DNA of 24,028 nucleotides from a virus (taxonomy: Duplodnaviria; Caudoviricetes). The notes below the pieces were generated by a model. That model searched no databases. It saw only the letters and a list, made by a program, of their open reading frames with translations, and was not told where the DNA came from. Shown here in pieces: positions 2,645 through 14,086 of the stretch. Both the position numbers and the translations under genes were made by a program. How positions within the stretch are numbered: the stretch's first letter is position 1; every line of letters starts with the position of its first letter. The stretch spans positions 1 to 24,028 of IMG/VR virus record IMGVR_UViG_3300047288_000016; one strand, given 5' to 3'.

Positions 2645-3076
2645 TCACATCTCCAAATAGGGTACTGAGGGTTTCAATAGTGCTGCCACTTCGTCCTGCT
2701 TACTACGAGTCCATTCAGCTTTAAACCCTGTCCAGCCACGGCTACAACACTCTCGTAGAGCCGCCTCTAGCGTCATCCCTGCCTTCATAGCTTCGTTGGC
2801 TATACCTTCGATTGCCCTAGCGGTAATCGGCGCTTTCTTGGCGTTTCTGAGGGCTTTAAAGTCTGCCCACGTTTGCTCAGACACACCGTCCGGCAATCCC
2901 AGACCATTCCTGATTTGAGTACGTTCCTGCTTAACTTTGGTTTGCCTGTTTTCCGTCTTTTCGTCTAGCAGCAGGCAAATCATGCTAGACAGGCTACGGT
3001 TGTCAGCCTGGGCTAGTTCTGTCAGATGTTGCCTCATAGTTTCTGACATTCTGATAGTGACGTATACGTTTTTCAT
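2645..3076 (-). CDS. Ribbon-helix-helix (Arc-like) domain fused to a phage replication-initiator C-terminal-like domain
   Basis: The N-terminus VYVTIRMSETMRQHLTELAQADNRSLSSMICLLL is Arc/CopG-like. The C-terminus LPDGVSEQTWADFKALRNAKKAPIT...ECCSRGWTGFKAEW resembles phage replisome-organiser C-termini. Confidence 0.6.
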   Translation of the reverse strand: MKNVYVTIRMSETMRQHLTELAQADNRSLSSMICLLLDEKTENRQTKVKQERTQIRNGLGLPDGVSEQTWADFKALRNAKKAPITARAIEGIANEAMKAGMTLEAALRECCSRGWTGFKAEWTRSKQDEVAALLKPSVPYLEM

Positions 3077-3425: not shown

Positions 3426-3732
3426 TGTTGCTAAGGCGAACAGCGACAAAGACCGTTTAGGTCTGTGCCTCCCATTGGGCGACAATCCGGTGGTGTTTCG
3501 CCAGGTGCAGACTTAAACGGTTTTTTACCGATTAGCAACCGCCAGAATCGTCGGGTGACAATACGGCAGGGTCTGGGGATAGTCGCTACTGTGGGGTTAG
3601 GTGTGAGACAGCGACAAGGGTGGCGAAGTTAGCGCCCAACACCGAACGGCTGACGGGTTCCGTGGCTCCGAAGAGCAGGATGAAGGACTTAGCTACCGCT
3701 AGGATAGGCTAGGTTCGTCCACCAAAGAGCAG
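3426..3732 (+). ncRNA. Candidate structured non-coding RNA (C4/CI-like three-way junction plus a downstream multi-stem domain)
   Basis: A 23-bp stem (3448-3470/3503-3525) encloses two small hairpins and ends in a U-run. At least five further hairpins follow, up to ~3716. No credible ORF is present. Confidence 0.55.
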
Positions 3733-3916: not shown

Positions 3917-4000
3917 CGGGGTAGTGTTTTCTCCTCCTTGTACATTACCCGATCAGGTAGCTAGACCCAGTCCCCCGCCCGAGTGCGGGGGATTCCTTTT
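3917..4000 (+). ncRNA. Candidate ~80-nt sRNA/leader with an anti-SD loop
   Basis: Stem GGGTAGTGT/ACATTACCC (3919-3950) with loop TTTCTCCTCCTTGT, lying between a promoter and a terminator-like hairpin. Confidence 0.5.
3969..4000 (+). terminator. Rho-independent terminator-like hairpin
   Basis: AGTCCCCCGC-CCGAGT-GCGGGGGATT followed by CCTTTT. Confidence 0.6.
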
Positions 4001-4009
4001 GGAGCTAAG

Positions 4010-4660
4010 GTGATACCGAGAAAACTGCACATTGTGTGGGTCGGAGACGAAAGTAAACGCCCGGACAATTGCATCAACACATGGCGCAACAAGAATCCAG
4101 GCTGGGAGATTAAGGTCTGGGGGAACAAAGAGCTTGCGGAAACTCCGTGGCGCAATGCCAAGCACATGATGGACTTTGCCAAGCGTGAGCTTTGCGGTGT
4201 TGCTGACCTTATGCGCTATGAAATCCTGTATGCGGAAGGTGGCTTGGCTGTCGATGCTGATAGCGTGTGTCTAAAACCGTTACCGTCTTGGCTAATGGAT
4301 GCAGAGGAATGGTGCTGTTGGGAAAATGAGATTAAGCGTCCTGGACTATTGGCAGTTGGCTACCTCGCAGCGAAGGCGGGCAGTCCGTTTATCGGACAGA
4401 TCATCGAGGATATCTACGCAGACGACCTTACGGGCAGACCCGCATGGCAAGCAACAGGCCCCGTCCGGCTTACCGAGATATTCGAAAAATTCGAATACCC
4501 TAACTTAACCATCTACCCGTCCCACTATTTCATCCCAGAACACTTTACCGGGCAGCGTTATACCGGATGCGGACATGTGTTTGCCAAACAGTTCTGGGGC
4601 AGCACCCACAAAATCTACGATAGTTTGTACATGCAGGAGTGCATAGATGAACGAGAATAA
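4010..4660 (+). CDS. Glycosyltransferase, DXD sugar-binding (GT32/OCH1-like)
   Basis: IPRKLHIVWVG, ADLMRYEILYAEGGLAVDADS and TGPVRLT; GTG 4010 preceded by GGAG. Confidence 0.85.
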   Translation: MIPRKLHIVWVGDESKRPDNCINTWRNKNPGWEIKVWGNKELAETPWRNAKHMMDFAKRELCGVADLMRYEILYAEGGLAVDADSVCLKPLPSWLMDAEEWCCWENEIKRPGLLAVGYLAAKAGSPFIGQIIEDIYADDLTGRPAWQATGPVRLTEIFEKFEYPNLTIYPSHYFIPEHFTGQRYTGCGHVFAKQFWGSTHKIYDSLYMQECIDERE

Positions 4661-5309
4661 GTTCATCATCACCTCTACGGTTGCCACAGACTTTGGTACT
4701 GGCGACAGATTGCATGAAACTTTAATGACCATACAAAGCATTAGAAAGCGTTTAGACGCAAAAATTTACCTAATTGATAGTTCGGTACACGATTGGGACG
4801 AAAACCCCGTCAGAGAGGCTGTAGACACGTTTCTGAGGGTGTCTGATACGCATACCAGAAACATCATCGAGTCTGGCTACGGAATGCCGTTTGTCAAGTC
4901 TGCAACGGAGGTGTATCTCATGCAGATTGCGCTAGACCTGATTGGGTACAGCGGCGGCGTAGTGTACAAGATAAGTGGCAGATACCGGCTTAATGACAAT
5001 TTTACTGAACATAAAGGTCAAAAGTTTAGGTTTCTAAAACCCATGCCTACGGGCATTCCGTTTGAGAAATGCAAGACAGACGGGATGCTGATGACGAGGC
5101 TGTATAGCTTTCCTGGTGAGTTCAGGACGTACTTTAGTAACGTGCTTGTCCAGGTCAACCGATACCTGTGGAAAACATACAGTTCTGGTGGGCTGACTGA
5201 CATAGAACACGGGCTGTACGAGCATCTGCCGCACGACTTGTGCAACTTTGTAGAAACCATAGGTGTAGAGGGCAGGATCGGACACCTAACAACAGAGGTG
5301 AGGGAATAA
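4647..5309 (+). CDS. Hypothetical protein, possible GT-A-fold glycosyltransferase
   Basis: Overlaps the GT32 gene; TLMTIQSIRK, IYLIDSS, YKISGRY and DIEH motifs resemble phage GT-like proteins. Confidence 0.5.
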   Translation: MNENKFIITSTVATDFGTGDRLHETLMTIQSIRKRLDAKIYLIDSSVHDWDENPVREAVDTFLRVSDTHTRNIIESGYGMPFVKSATEVYLMQIALDLIGYSGGVVYKISGRYRLNDNFTEHKGQKFRFLKPMPTGIPFEKCKTDGMLMTRLYSFPGEFRTYFSNVLVQVNRYLWKTYSSGGLTDIEHGLYEHLPHDLCNFVETIGVEGRIGHLTTEVRE

Positions 5310-10195: not shown

Positions 10196-11167
10196 ATGAG
10201 CGAAAACATGACACCCGGTCAGGGTAGTGGGACGCTATCGGTGGGAGCAGCCGCCGAAGCAATGTTAGGACTGATGGGCGGTGAGGACTCGCAAGAGCAA
10301 CCCGTAACCGAGCCGGAGGTTCAGGCAGGAGCAGAAGCAGCCGAGGAACAGTACGAATCGCAAGACGAATACGAATCCGAAGCAGAGGATGATAACGCAG
10401 AGGAAGTTCAAGAGCAGCCTAAATACCGTGTCAAAGCCGCTGGCGAAGAACGGGAGGTAACGCTTGACGAACTTATTCGGGGTTATCAACTTGAGGCTGA
10501 TTACACCAAGAAAACCCAATCTCTCTCAGAGGAGCGCAAGCAGGTAGAAGCCGAGCGTGTGCGAATCCAGGAGGCAAACAAACTGAGGGATCAGTACGCA
10601 GAACGGTTGCAGATTATTGAGCAGATGCTCCAACAGCAACCGACTGAGAACTTGGAACAACTGAAAGAAACCGACCCAATTGGGTATGCAGTCAAGGTAG
10701 CTGAACAACAGCAGAAAGAGAAACAACTGCAAGCTGTGCAGATGGAACGGTTCAGAATTGCTCAACAGCAACAAGCTGAACAGACCGAGATGCTGGCGAA
10801 ACACGTTGCGACTGAAGCTGAGAAATTGGCTCAAGCTATCCCAGACTTTGCAGACAAGGAAAAAGGCGAACCCGTCCGTAAGGAAATTCGCAGTTTTGCT
10901 AAATCAATTGGCTGGACGGATCAAGAGTTGGCAAGTGTGTACGACTCTCGTGCAGTCCTGACGCTGTACAAGGCGATGCAGTACGACAAGCTAATGCAGA
11001 ATAAGCCCGATGTTGCCAAGAAAATGGCACAAGCGCCCAAGATGCTGAAGGCTGGTGCGTCACAGCAGCGCAGTCCAGATCAGGAACAAGTCAAACGACA
11101 AAAACAGCAGCTAAAGCGCTCAGGACGAGTGGCTGATGCGGCTGGATTATTTGAACGCTTTTTATAA
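10196..11167 (+). CDS. Capsid scaffolding protein
   Basis: Acidic N-terminus, VKAAGEEREVTLDELIRGYQLEADYTKKTQ, coiled coils; precedes the capsid gene. Confidence 0.85.
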   Translation: MSENMTPGQGSGTLSVGAAAEAMLGLMGGEDSQEQPVTEPEVQAGAEAAEEQYESQDEYESEAEDDNAEEVQEQPKYRVKAAGEEREVTLDELIRGYQLEADYTKKTQSLSEERKQVEAERVRIQEANKLRDQYAERLQIIEQMLQQQPTENLEQLKETDPIGYAVKVAEQQQKEKQLQAVQMERFRIAQQQQAEQTEMLAKHVATEAEKLAQAIPDFADKEKGEPVRKEIRSFAKSIGWTDQELASVYDSRAVLTLYKAMQYDKLMQNKPDVAKKMAQAPKMLKAGASQQRSPDQEQVKRQKQQLKRSGRVADAAGLFERFL

Positions 11168-11176
11168 GGAACTATC

Positions 11177-11230
11177 ATGGCTACATATACCGCCCATAGC
11201 GCTATTGGTCAGCGCGAAGATTTGACGGAT
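11177..11230 (+). CDS. Major capsid protein, exon 1 (codons 1-18)
   Basis: TAAGGA RBS; ATG 11177 gives MATYTAHSAIGQREDLTD, followed by an in-frame TAA that is the first codon of the intron. Confidence 0.9.
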
Positions 11231-12182
11231 TAAAGTTAGTCTAATAAACTAACGCCAGTCCCCTTCATATTTAGAGGCTGGCAAATGGGAAAGCTAAACA
11301 TTAGTAAGGAGCAGTTAGAAACCTTAAGTAAGACCAACACTTGTGAAGAAATTGGCAGGATGTATGGCTGTAGTGCAGAGTTAGTTAGACGAGCGATGCA
11401 CAAAAATGGTGTTAAACTGAGCAGGCGAAAGTTCGACCCCAGTAAACACGATTTAGAACAGCTATATCAAACCATGTCAATGCGGCAAATTGCCGATCAT
11501 TATGGAGTTGGTGAAACGGTAGTGTGGGCTAGGCTCAAAGAACATGGGATTGTTCTGCAAGAATTTGGTAATCACAGGCTGAAACCAGGAAGGATATTTA
11601 GCTTGGAACACCGAAAGAATTTGAGCAAAGCACACACGGGAAGATGGGAAGGTGATAAAAACCCGAATTGGAAAGGCGGGGTACATCATCAAAACTTGAA
11701 AGCTAGGGCAACAGGCGAATACAAGCAGTGGCGTATCGCAGCACTAGCAGCCAAGGGAAATAGATGTGAATGTTGTGGAGTTGAGCAAGACACAGTTTGT
11801 AACTGTTGTGGCGTAAAAATAAGACTCCATGTTCATCACATCAAACCGTTTTCTAAATACCCTGAATTAAGGTACGAACCGCTAAATGCTGAAGTTTTGT
11901 GTCCCAGATGCCATGCAGCTAGACATGATTGAATAATCGGGTGAATTGCTGGAACGCCCTTAGAGCCTTGAGTACCAAAGCGTAATAATCTCAAGGATTG
12001 GGTAATCAGCAGCCAAGCCGCAAATGTAAGGTGAAAACCCCAGGGTTGCGGAAGGTTCAACGACTAGGCAGTGACGAAAGAATAATCTGCCCACGAGCGC
12101 CCGACACGAAAGTGATGATATAGTCTGAGCTACCGTGAAAGCGGTAGAAGCAAGGATAAAGAGCCTTGCGATAACATAACTG
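11231..12182 (+). mobile_element. Group I self-splicing intron (952 nt, IA-like) carrying a homing endonuclease
   Basis: P1 with U.G wobble; P AATTGCTGGAA 11944; Q AATCAGCAGC 12004; R GTTCAACGACTA 12055; S ATGATATAGTC 12115; P3 TCGGGTG/CGCCCGA; P7 GACTA/TAGTC; P8 and P9 GAAA hairpins; terminal G 12182. Removing it restores the capsid reading frame. Confidence 0.93.
11285..11932 (+). CDS. Intron-encoded HNH homing endonuclease (2x HTH, NUMOD3-like, zinc-finger HNH)
   Basis: HTH-like CEEIGRMYGCSAELVRRAM and MRQIADHYGVGETVVWARL; FSLEHRKNLSKAHTG and GDKNPNWKGG; LHVHHIKP...N...LCPRCH. Confidence 0.9.
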   Translation: MGKLNISKEQLETLSKTNTCEEIGRMYGCSAELVRRAMHKNGVKLSRRKFDPSKHDLEQLYQTMSMRQIADHYGVGETVVWARLKEHGIVLQEFGNHRLKPGRIFSLEHRKNLSKAHTGRWEGDKNPNWKGGVHHQNLKARATGEYKQWRIAALAAKGNRCECCGVEQDTVCNCCGVKIRLHVHHIKPFSKYPELRYEPLNAEVLCPRCHAARHD

Positions 12183-13073
12183 GTTATTTACGACATCTCC
12201 CCCACCGACACTCCTTTGCTGAATACCTTGGCTCGTGGTAAGGCTACGGCTGTGTTCCACGAGTGGCAGACCGACAACCTCGCTGCTGCTACCACGGGTA
12301 ACGCTGCTGTTGAAGGCGCGGATGCTACCTCTGCTACGCTTGCTCCTACGACCCGTCTCGGGAACTATACGCAAATCGTGCAGAAAACGATTCAGGTCAG
12401 CGGAACGCTTGAGGCCGTTAATAAGGCTGGTCGCAAGTCTGAAAAGGCTTACCAGTTGGCTAAGGCTTCTAGCGAGTTGAAGCGCGACATCGAAACCATC
12501 CTGTTGAGCAACCAGGCTCGTTCGGCTGGTAGCGGCTCTACCGCTCGTAAGATGGCTTCCATGCTGTCTTGGCTCAAGACCAACACCAGCGAGGGTGTTT
12601 CGGGTGCTGATCCCACGACCATTGGCGAGTCGACCCGTTCGGACGGTACTGCCCGTACCTTTACCGAGCAGTTGCTCAAGGATGTGATTCGTGGCGTGTA
12701 CGAGTCGGGTGGTTCGCCCAAGATCCTGTTGGTCGGCCCCGCTGTCAAGCAGAAAGTCTCTACGTTTGCTGGCATCGCCGAGCAGCGTTACATGGCCCCT
12801 GCTGACGCTCCGACCACGATCATTGGCGCTGCTGATGTGTATCTCAGCGACTTTGGTTCGGTTTCTGTCGTGCCTGACCGCTTTATGCGCGCAACCGATG
12901 CTTTCGTGCTTGATCCTGAGTACGCAGCAGTCGCTTATCTGCGTCCGTTCGCTACCAACGAACTGGCTAAGACGGGTGACAGCGAGAAGACACAGATTCT
13001 CGCCGAGTTGACGCTCGAGATGAGAAATGAAAGTGCGCATGGACTCGTGACCGACATCAACGCTGCTCTCTGA
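12183..13073 (+). CDS. Major capsid protein, exon 2 (spliced product 314 aa)
   Basis: Begins VIYDISPTDTPLLNTLARGKATAVFHEWQTD; RLGNYTQI, KELKRD-like SSELKRDIE and LAKTGDSEK motifs of SU10/DUF5309-like capsids; follows the scaffold gene. Confidence 0.92.
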   Translation, partial: VIYDISPTDTPLLNTLARGKATAVFHEWQTDNLAAATTGNAAVEGADATSATLAPTTRLGNYTQIVQKTIQVSGTLEAVNKAGRKSEKAYQLAKASSELKRDIETILLSNQARSAGSGSTARKMASMLSWLKTNTSEGVSGADPTTIGESTRSDGTARTFTEQLLKDVIRGVYESGGSPKILLVGPAVKQKVSTFAGIAEQRYMAPADAPTTIIGAADVYLSDFGSVSVVPDRFMRATDAFVLDPEYAAVAYLRPFATNELAKTGDSEKTQILAELTLEMRNESAHGLVTDINAAL

Positions 13074-13124: not shown

Positions 13125-13445
13125 ATGCCGAAAATATTCAATGTTGACCCCTACACAGGGAGACATACGGTAGCCCACGAAGATGGCGAAGGTGGGATCA
13201 TCCTAGAGACAAAGCAGGATGTATCTCAGATCATCGAGGGCAACAAGAAGATGTTCAACGAAGTTACCTCGTTAGACAGATGGGGTGACATTACTCACGT
13301 TGCTAGACTCCCTCTCACGGTTATAGATGACCTGAATAAAAAGGGAATTATGCGTGGGTTTCATGTTTTGAACGAAACGGAGTTCAAGGCGTTTTTGAAC
13401 CATCCTGACAACCGATTCTTTCGCACTAGACCGGGAAAAGTATGA
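13125..13445 (+). CDS. Conserved-type phage hypothetical protein
   Basis: 106 aa; QDVSQIIEGNK...FLNHPDNRFFRTRPG; located right after the capsid gene. Confidence 0.7.
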   Translation: MPKIFNVDPYTGRHTVAHEDGEGGIILETKQDVSQIIEGNKKMFNEVTSLDRWGDITHVARLPLTVIDDLNKKGIMRGFHVLNETEFKAFLNHPDNRFFRTRPGKV

Positions 13446-14086
13446 AGATAGCTATCTGCGTCCCATGCAGGGATCAGGTGATGGCTGGCTTCTGTTTTGA
13501 CCTCGCTAAATTGGTCGGCTATCACTCAAGAAATACCAAGGATGAGATACAGATTTACCAGATGCCAGGAACGCTAATCTTCCACCAACGGGAGAAACTA
13601 GCGAAAGAGGCATTAGACAACGGGGCAGACGCTATCCTGTGGATCGACTCAGATATGCGTTTCCCAAGCGATACGCTAGAAAGGTTGTTATCACACAATG
13701 TAGAGATTTGTGGGGTAAACGCTACTACCCGTGTTGATCCTATCAAGCCTACAGCGCTGAACCTAGACATCGTGGACGATAAGCCTGTGTTTAGCAAGGT
13801 AGAGACACGGGGCAAGGATTATGTCGAAGAAATCTCGGCGGTTGGGTTTGGTGTCACGCTGACCCGCAGAAGTGTGTTTGAGAAGATGGCACAGCCTTGG
13901 TTCGATATCCTGTGGACAGATGCAGGTGGGATTATCGGCGAGGATGTGCATTTCTGTATCAAGGCGCAGGATTATGGCATTAAGACGTATGTAGACCATG
14001 TGCTGTCACCTTACATCAAGCACATTGGGACGAAAGAATACTCATGGGATGATGTGAAATGGCAATCACCAACTACAGCGACCTAA
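13442..14086 (+). CDS. GT-A/GT2-like glycosyltransferase
   Basis: MKIAICVP, ILWIDSDMRF (DXD), VGFGVTL, GEDVHFC and HIG motifs. Confidence 0.8.
   Translation: MKIAICVPCRDQVMAGFCFDLAKLVGYHSRNTKDEIQIYQMPGTLIFHQREKLAKEALDNGADAILWIDSDMRFPSDTLERLLSHNVEICGVNATTRVDPIKPTALNLDIVDDKPVFSKVETRGKDYVEEISAVGFGVTLTRRSVFEKMAQPWFDILWTDAGGIIGEDVHFCIKAQDYGIKTYVDHVLSPYIKHIGTKEYSWDDVKWQSPTTAT

Follow-up and report, generated by a model that had tools for sequence, protein, structure and literature searches.

A probably active, mobile group I intron with an HNH gene in the SU10-type major capsid gene of a phage

The split capsid gene and its intron

The window, by which we mean the whole stretch of DNA analysed here, is a linear virus record of 24,028 bases (IMG/VR record IMGVR_UViG_3300047288_000016; estimated completeness 67%), in which profile matches identify terminase, SU10-type portal, scaffold, capsid and virion genes. 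The major capsid gene lies on the + strand in two pieces. Exon 1 (11177..11230, +) starts with the ATG at 11177, which is preceded by AAGGA (11166-11170), and comprises 18 codons with U11230 as the final base; immediately 3' of this base stands an in-frame TAA (11231-11233). Exon 2 (12183..13073, +) comprises 296 codons, with the frame open from 12183 to the stop codon at 13071-13073, and encodes an SU10-type capsid protein (PF17236, E 4.4e-100; phrog_1328). The 952 nucleotides (nt) in between (11231..12182, +) have the in-frame stop as first codon and G12182 as last base, and contain a gene for an HNH homing endonuclease of 215 amino acids (11285..11932, +). When 11230 is joined to 12183, a capsid protein of 314 amino acids results. 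We consider it very likely that this element is an HNH-carrying group I intron between capsid codons 18 and 19 that splices itself out to allow production of the 314-residue protein and that is able to home.

Since several alternative cut points likewise leave the frame open, frame continuity by itself does not fix the junction, and the open frame was rejected as proof of it. The junction is fixed by the U and G at the intron boundaries together with the capsid relatives. Of 362 viral relatives of exon 2, we aligned the best 80: in 77 of these loci, there is no intron and the protein is continuous over D18|V19 (as D|V or D|M), and in three (L016, L017 and L066) an intron occupies this very position. 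Exon 2 matches the SU10_MCP profile (PF17236) above the cut-off with 335 bits, but alone it covers profile positions 17-291, compared to 6-291 for the intronless relative L001, and the N-terminus of an intronless relative, i.e. the stretch corresponding to exon 1, aligns with the solved capsids 9ny2 and 7z45. The longest unspliced capsid open reading frame (ORF) starts at the TTG at 12216 and, with 285 amino acids, is 29 residues short. These results support the view that the full-length capsid requires splicing. Gene callers will truncate such capsids in the same way, in what is a common freshwater phage family. Among the capsid relatives at about 41% are PaP4, phiIBB-PAA2 and others, which we take to be LUZ24-like phages.

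The group I covariance model RF00028 matches positions 11889-12147 with 79 bits (gathering score 50; E 8e-19), and the ribozyme core at 11937..12169 (+) comprises P3, P4, P5, P5a, P6, P6a, P7, P7.1, P8, P9 and P9.1. Both RF00028 and covariation place P3 (11937-43/12098-104), P4 (11947-51/12007-11), P6 (12012-14/12054-56), P7 (12062-66/12121-25) and P7.1 (12067-71/12087-91), all on the + strand. Across 33 aligned introns, 96.4% of the cells of the drawn structure are paired, compared to 32-40% in slid controls, and two-sided changes are found at 44 of the 57 core pairs, a number reached by none of 500 shuffles; one of the drawn pairs, the basal one of P5, does not form in 27 of the 33. The core includes the P3/P7 pseudoknot, the G-C pair of P7 is invariant (33/33), and P7.1 is paired in 93.9%, with two-sided changes. 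Subgroup IA is characterised by one or more extra stems between P7 and P3, and the single such stem present here, P7.1, makes the intron IA-like. The IA1/IA2/IA3-type subgroups, according to the available part of PMC11878797, fit phage introns poorly. At the 3' end, P9.0 (12128-12129/12180-12181, +) lies immediately 5' of the terminal G; it pairs in 34 of 40 introns, using five letter combinations with compensatory changes in relatives (shuffle mean 17.0, maximum 24). Because the P9.0 pairing fixes the terminal G, G12182 is the last base of the intron. No conserved P10 register was found for the window intron by inspection. Based on these sequence data, the assignment as a group I intron with boundaries 11231-12182 is supported, and its removal would almost certainly proceed by guanosine-initiated two-step splicing.

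A preliminary description, made from the letters of the window alone, had reported the ribosome-binding site, the ATG, the 18-codon ORF up to U11230 with the adjacent TAA, the complete core at 11937-12169 and the terminal G12182, and had concluded that capsid production depends on splicing and that standard annotation would lose the N-terminus. All of this agrees with our results, including the covariance-model search and the alignment to intronless homologues, in which the N-terminus is present. The join of 11230 to 12183 yields the 314 residues it gave, but the continuous frame does not carry the weight of a proof, for the reason stated above. The HNH gene and the mobility of the intron had been overlooked.

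RNA data were at hand as assembled contigs only, in which the absence of a joint proves nothing. The window phage is represented by four short near-exact contigs in RNA run X19 and by two in X20, and one contig crosses the 5' site unspliced; run X21 contains next to none of the stretch. For the relative L296, run X19 contains a joint 1449>2398 that skips exactly its 948-nt intron (2 contigs, depth 16), next to two contigs with 0 differences to L296, one from exon 1 with its end at 1449, the other from the intron and spanning 1420-2427; the intron contig in X20 also begins at 1420. The DNA runs X3 and X7 do not list the L296 joint, and a contig in X7 crosses the 5' site unbranched. Several points weigh against splicing as the source of this joint and against its extension to the window: a spliced joint of the window phage itself is not among the X19 and X20 contigs, the L296 joint is not listed in X20, its shorter arm has only 22 letters (likeness setting 93) and it comes from one RNA study, the RNA and DNA runs are from different samples, and L052, one of the 77 intronless relatives, shares the last nine exon-1 letters. 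The joint is thus weakly suggestive of splicing in the wild, with an intronless allele having the same exon end as an alternative source, and a joint exactly at the predicted junction was seen for a relative and not for the window phage.

The idea that the intron is a dead insertion, with the capsid being made from the internal TTG at 12216, where the 285-residue ORF indeed begins, or with the phage being defective, is hardly credible even though the window phage's own junction is missing from the RNA-run contigs: conservation of the 29 residues in question extends to each of the 77 intronless relatives and to solved capsids, and the ribozyme core is complete and shows covariation. Parts of the capsid region occur in 20 listed sequencing runs, all of freshwater or river origin; 18 of these contain at least half of the stretch's sampled words (two of the 18 may be the source), and an HNH copy identical to that of the window was assembled as L213.

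At the 5' end, P1 (11227..11261, +) is formed by exon bases GGAU plus the intron's first U (11227-11231) pairing with the guide AGUCC (11257-11261), and the pair U11230.G11258 marks the 5' splice site. A guide at the AGUCC position makes 4/4 pairs in 43 of the 46 intron types found at this site (see below) and covaries with the exon (AGAU/GUCU, GAAU/GUUC, GAGGAU/GUCCUC); in the short intron L123, it is the only guide. The P1 loop contains a hairpin, P1a (11236..11252, +), whose 5' arm is UAGUCU, which covaries in close relatives and is missing from the short HNH-less introns. In the preliminary description, it was this UAGUCU (11237-11242) that paired with the exon, leaving the splice site unchanged. 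The register would allow six pairs here with a U.G at the junction (-3.0 kcal/mol), and 12 of the 46 types could form some alternative register upstream; its letters, however, read UAUUCU in L083 and are absent from L123, L118, L153 and L085, it is AGUCC that covaries with the exon, and P1 together with P1a is more stable (-5.8 kcal/mol) and contained in the folding minimum. We thus regard P1 pairing with UAGUCU as improbable and, altered or missing in relatives as it is, rejected it as the conserved register; the splice site after U11230 stands, and its partner is the AGUCC guide.

Distribution of the intron and predicted homing

The intron family was gathered by searches with the HNH protein, the core motif and the junction pattern, which yielded 100 locus records, many of them duplicated contigs. 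These records represent 47 distinct 5' types, from which L242, L235 and L237 were dropped (wrong exon calls or other sites) and to which L395 and L387 were added, resulting in 46 intron types at one capsid site: 40 bear the HNH gene, five are short and HNH-less, and one (L118) is a remnant. Twelve of 14 inspected pattern matches turned out to be chance matches in unrelated genes. The capsids hosting these introns are between about 32% and 90% identical to that of the close relative L001. Among cultured phages, none of 50,697 records covers 80% of the intron, and 52 have short core matches.

The HNH gene is located in the P2 loop of the intron, and its product matches PF01844 (E 3.7e-7) and phrog_8446 (E 8.9e-24). 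The protein has N-terminal helix-turn-helix-like repeats, which score below curated cut-offs, and a C-terminal HNH domain with CxxC pairs; C161, C164, C172, C175, H184, H185 and N201 are invariant across six relatives. No solved structure was significantly similar to it (best E 0.26). Non-synonymous (pN) and synonymous (pS) differences are 0.07 vs 0.37 for the pair L082/L214, and 0.18-0.24 vs a saturated pS for the HNH gene of the window; judged by these sequence comparisons, the gene is intact and under strong purifying selection. Nine HNH relatives were found in the genome collection, one of which (best segment 59%) lies at 1622-2419 of L415, in a Bryobacterales metagenome-assembled genome and without the capsid-exon pattern, and is possibly free-standing.

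In order to follow the intron over the capsid phylogeny, a tree of 48 hand-picked rows was used, comprising 34 of the best 80 relatives, the window and 13 further intron-bearing capsids. The presence of the intron on this tree needs seven changes, at least five of which are forced by well-supported branches. The window capsid is placed among intronless capsids and is 92% identical to that of L003. The introns of L016 and L066 differ at 4 of 948 nt, compared to an identity of 77% between exon 2 of their hosts; early exon 1 of each resembles its own intronless kin, and the patch that the two have in common extends from about 20 nt before to a few nt after the site. Position -4 is occupied by G in 42 of the 46 intron types, compared to one of the 77 intronless alleles; the former count is to be read with the fact that part of the types was found with a pattern requiring GGAT. 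The patchy distribution, the near-identical intron in hosts that are 77% alike and the exon co-conversion indicate, at the level of sequence comparison, recent homing.

In mechanistic terms, the HNH protein would quite likely cut or nick intronless capsid genes near the site during mixed infection. Repair would then copy the intron together with roughly 20 nt from exon 1, and the co-converted patch would bring along the G at -4 for P1 and, in the clade of the window, the -35 box discussed below. Runs X19, X20 and X7 also contain intronless alleles with other exon-1 ends, whose contig depth is several times that of the intron-bearing allele; homing targets thus co-occur with the intron. In intronless L052, exon 1 ends (at about 2980-3010) in intron-type letters, with G at -4, which makes a precise intron loss or a homing-immune allele possible.

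In L101 and L118, the HNH gene is internally deleted, leaving introns of 380 and 421 nt that retain the P1-loop hairpin, the promoter-like boxes and P2. By their sequence features, these two introns are decay intermediates of the mobile-intron cycle. Gain, spread and decay of mobile introns are known, and co-conversion is described in the available part of PMC2988022. The 46 types at one site, with the HNH gene intact, internally deleted or absent, provide a natural series for this homing cycle, and the series sits in the most highly expressed phage gene. Overall, the SU10-type capsid gene of the window is, in our view, host to a real group I intron that is mobile and probably active and that would splice itself from the late mRNA to give the 314-residue capsid and would spread by endonuclease-driven homing into intronless relatives.

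The same capsid family contains further group I introns, with three RF00028 matches in L142 and two each in L169 and L153; the extra sites are near residues 23-26, 47-50, 107-111 and 119-120 and near the N-terminus. In L316/L319 (2387-3586), the capsid match is broken again near residue 240-243, and in L322 a group I 3' end lies at about 1330-1500, upstream of the L322 HNH gene. L316/L319 and L322 probably hold more introns.

Predicted control of HNH expression

The Shine-Dalgarno sequence of the HNH gene is part of the 5' strand of P2 (11265..11283, +), which pairs with 11909-11928, i.e. with the last HNH codons (z -3.7 in the window). The P2 signal has a z below -1.64 in 29 of 39 introns and was not detected by this test in L314, L220, L309, L302, L304 and L317; for three short introns, the test was wrongly windowed. 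A second predicted structure, a masking hairpin at 11254..11282 (+), excludes both P1 and P2: in it, the guide region pairs with the Shine-Dalgarno motif GAGG (11274-11277) of the HNH gene. Its folding energy is -12.7 kcal/mol, or -5.1 kcal/mol if the RNA starts at 11257. In 25 of 40 local folds, a few of them with mis-called start codons, pairing of the guide with downstream sequence outweighs its pairing with the exon. Folded from the predicted transcription start, the accessibility of the ribosome-binding site rises to 0.52 from 0.27 in a control cut just upstream; it goes up in 23 of 31 introns and down in one.

The transcription start used in these folds belongs to a predicted sigma70-type promoter of the HNH gene (11222..11250, +), with a -35 box TTGACG (11222-11227) made of exon 1 codons 16-17, a 17-nt spacer spanning the splice site, a -10 box TAAACT (11245-11250) and a predicted start near A11257, the first base of the guide. 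A palindrome in the P1 loop spans the predicted -10. T4-type control of intron endonucleases includes autorepression at an operator over the promoter, for which this palindrome and the helix-turn-helix-like N-terminus of the HNH protein are candidate parts. The lone match in the window (9/12) is no better than chance, with 4 found vs 3.2 expected in 4 kb, and it is the family of introns that argues for a promoter. In 33 of the 40 HNH-bearing types, the guide is preceded at a distance of 0-8 nt by a -10-like hexamer (12.7+-2.8 in shuffled loops), and a match of at least 8/12 with 16-18 nt spacing is present in 20 of 40 (shuffles 3.0+-1.6, maximum 9); counting one row per hand-made family, the latter becomes 8 of 18 vs 1.4+-1.1. 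The histogram of spacers peaks at 17. None of the five short HNH-less introns has such a match, their loops being 6-9 nt long vs 12-61 nt, and the match is kept in the HNH remnant L118.

Several observations speak against a promoter at this place. Half of the HNH-bearing types (20/40) lack a full match, and what is seen is a consensus match only. The spacer histogram peaks again at 23 (9 rows, 5 families), which means that TTGAC at the junction also occurs without the correct spacing. In a search for P10 among 28 types, three have a -10-like hexamer that can form 5-6 pairs with exon 2, and 11 have one that forms at least 4; in those three types, the hexamer may be a P10 guide instead. The families were grouped by hand, the shuffles ignore palindromy, and a few start codons are uncertain in the hairpin and accessibility folds. 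An intron identical in all other respects but devoid of an internal promoter, whose TATAAT-like P1-loop letters are a P10 guide or due to chance and whose HNH gene relies on weak translation of either the long capsid mRNA or the excised intron, would accommodate these observations, including the chance-level match in the window. We nevertheless consider it rather unlikely, as 17 of the 28 hexamers pair at most three bases with exon 2, the short HNH-less introns with their 6-9-nt loops are devoid of promoter matches, and the -35 box keeps its 16-18 nt from the -10 box while shifting with loop length from exon position -9 over the junction to intron positions +4 to +6.

We thus lean towards a separation of HNH expression from capsid expression by masking and an internal promoter, a model derived from folding and motif statistics. 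In the long mRNA, the ribosome-binding site of the HNH gene would be masked first by the guide hairpin and later by P2, the formation of which would also free the guide for P1. On the DNA, a host sigma70-type promoter over exon 1 and the P1 loop would start a short RNA at the guide, and this host-polymerase transcript, with its weaker hairpin, would express the nuclease. In its general form, according to which widespread capsid introns have built the control of their endonuclease into the splice-site helix by means of a promoter, of the guide as anti-Shine-Dalgarno and of re-masking by P2, the model is put forward tentatively. If it is true, the nuclease is made early from a short RNA and almost not at all from the abundant capsid mRNA, so that the T4 timing is inverted; homing must co-convert exon 1, as only then are the promoter and a P1 capable of splicing both put in place; and the early nuclease might serve as a weapon against intronless relatives, which are the more abundant phages in the same river samples. 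The model of how a mobile intron keeps the translation of its nuclease off capsid splicing is testable.

In the neighbourhood, the gene for the head scaffolding protein (10196..11167, +; phrog_3927, E 1.8e-55) lies upstream of the capsid gene and ends in a stop codon that overlaps with the ribosome-binding site of the latter. A glycosyltransferase-like gene (13442-14086; phrog_12406, E 3.5e-8) lies within the head module, and two more ORFs within 3983-5309 are glycosyltransferase-like by eye only. Between the leftward and the rightward gene blocks, positions 3540-3658 (+) match the Rfam family Betaproteobacteria-1 RNA (RF02932, 95.8 bits), a weak hint at a betaproteobacterial host.

Comparison with known systems

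The preliminary description regarded introns in capsid genes as much less often reported than those in other phage genes. The degree of surprise is to be lowered, since two such cases were already published. In the mycobacteriophage LittleE, a capsid intron was established by reverse transcription PCR over the junction and N-terminal sequencing (Pope et al. 2013, PMC3706429), and the same paper cites a group I intron in a capsid subunit gene of the lactococcal phage Tuc2009; the likeness of the latter to the intron described here is by citation only, not by sequence. According to the part of PMC3706429 available to us, the LittleE intron resembles the one in the window in its location in the major capsid gene near the mature N-terminus, the U before and the G at the end of the intron, the endonuclease gene inside it and the existence of intronless relatives. 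It differs in that its endonuclease gene lies on the opposite (bottom) strand and that its class was given no more precisely than 'most likely group I', whereas the intron presented here has a sense HNH gene in the P2 loop, a clear match to RF00028, an SU10/LUZ24-type capsid as host and 46 types at one site. Reviews, as far as the available part of PMC12350094 goes, still emphasise genes of nucleotide metabolism as intron hosts, and the word 'capsid' is absent from the main text of PMC3984707 and PMC11878797. Neither introns of the window's capsid family nor a promoter spanning a 5' splice site turned up in our searches, which covered part of the literature and main texts only. As a place for an intron, the capsid gene is thus already known, while the predicted regulatory layout is possibly new.

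The capsid relatives around PaP4 are taken, as stated above, to belong to the LUZ24 group. This group uses host sigma70-type promoters and has its group I intron in the DNA polymerase gene, not in the capsid gene (PMC10914365, available part). In the jumbo phage PhiPA3, gp210 is an HNH protein encoded in a group I intron after a conserved Asp and targets the intronless allele of co-infecting relatives (10.1101/2023.09.30.560319, available part). There, the host gene encodes an RNA polymerase and both cleavage and interference were demonstrated, whereas our reading is sequence-based.

A further comparison is with the T4 introns td/I-TevI, nrdD/I-TevII and nrdB/I-TevIII, which are mobile introns (PMC2988022, PMC3073962, both seen in part). 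The available portions of these sources describe several features that recur in the window: an in-frame stop just past the 5' splice site, an endonuclease ORF that overlaps intron structure, a hairpin that masks the ribosome-binding site, which in the window is seen by folding only, an internal-promoter transcript that lacks part of this hairpin, which in the window is a prediction from motif statistics, and co-conversion. The differences reported there concern the host genes, which are early or middle genes in T4, the I-TevI ORF in P6, the phage late promoter just upstream of it and the hairpin, which is a dedicated one. In the window, the host gene is a capsid gene and the ORF lies in P2; the promoter is predicted to be a sigma70-like host promoter placed over exon 1 and the splice site, and masking would be achieved by the guide and then by P2.

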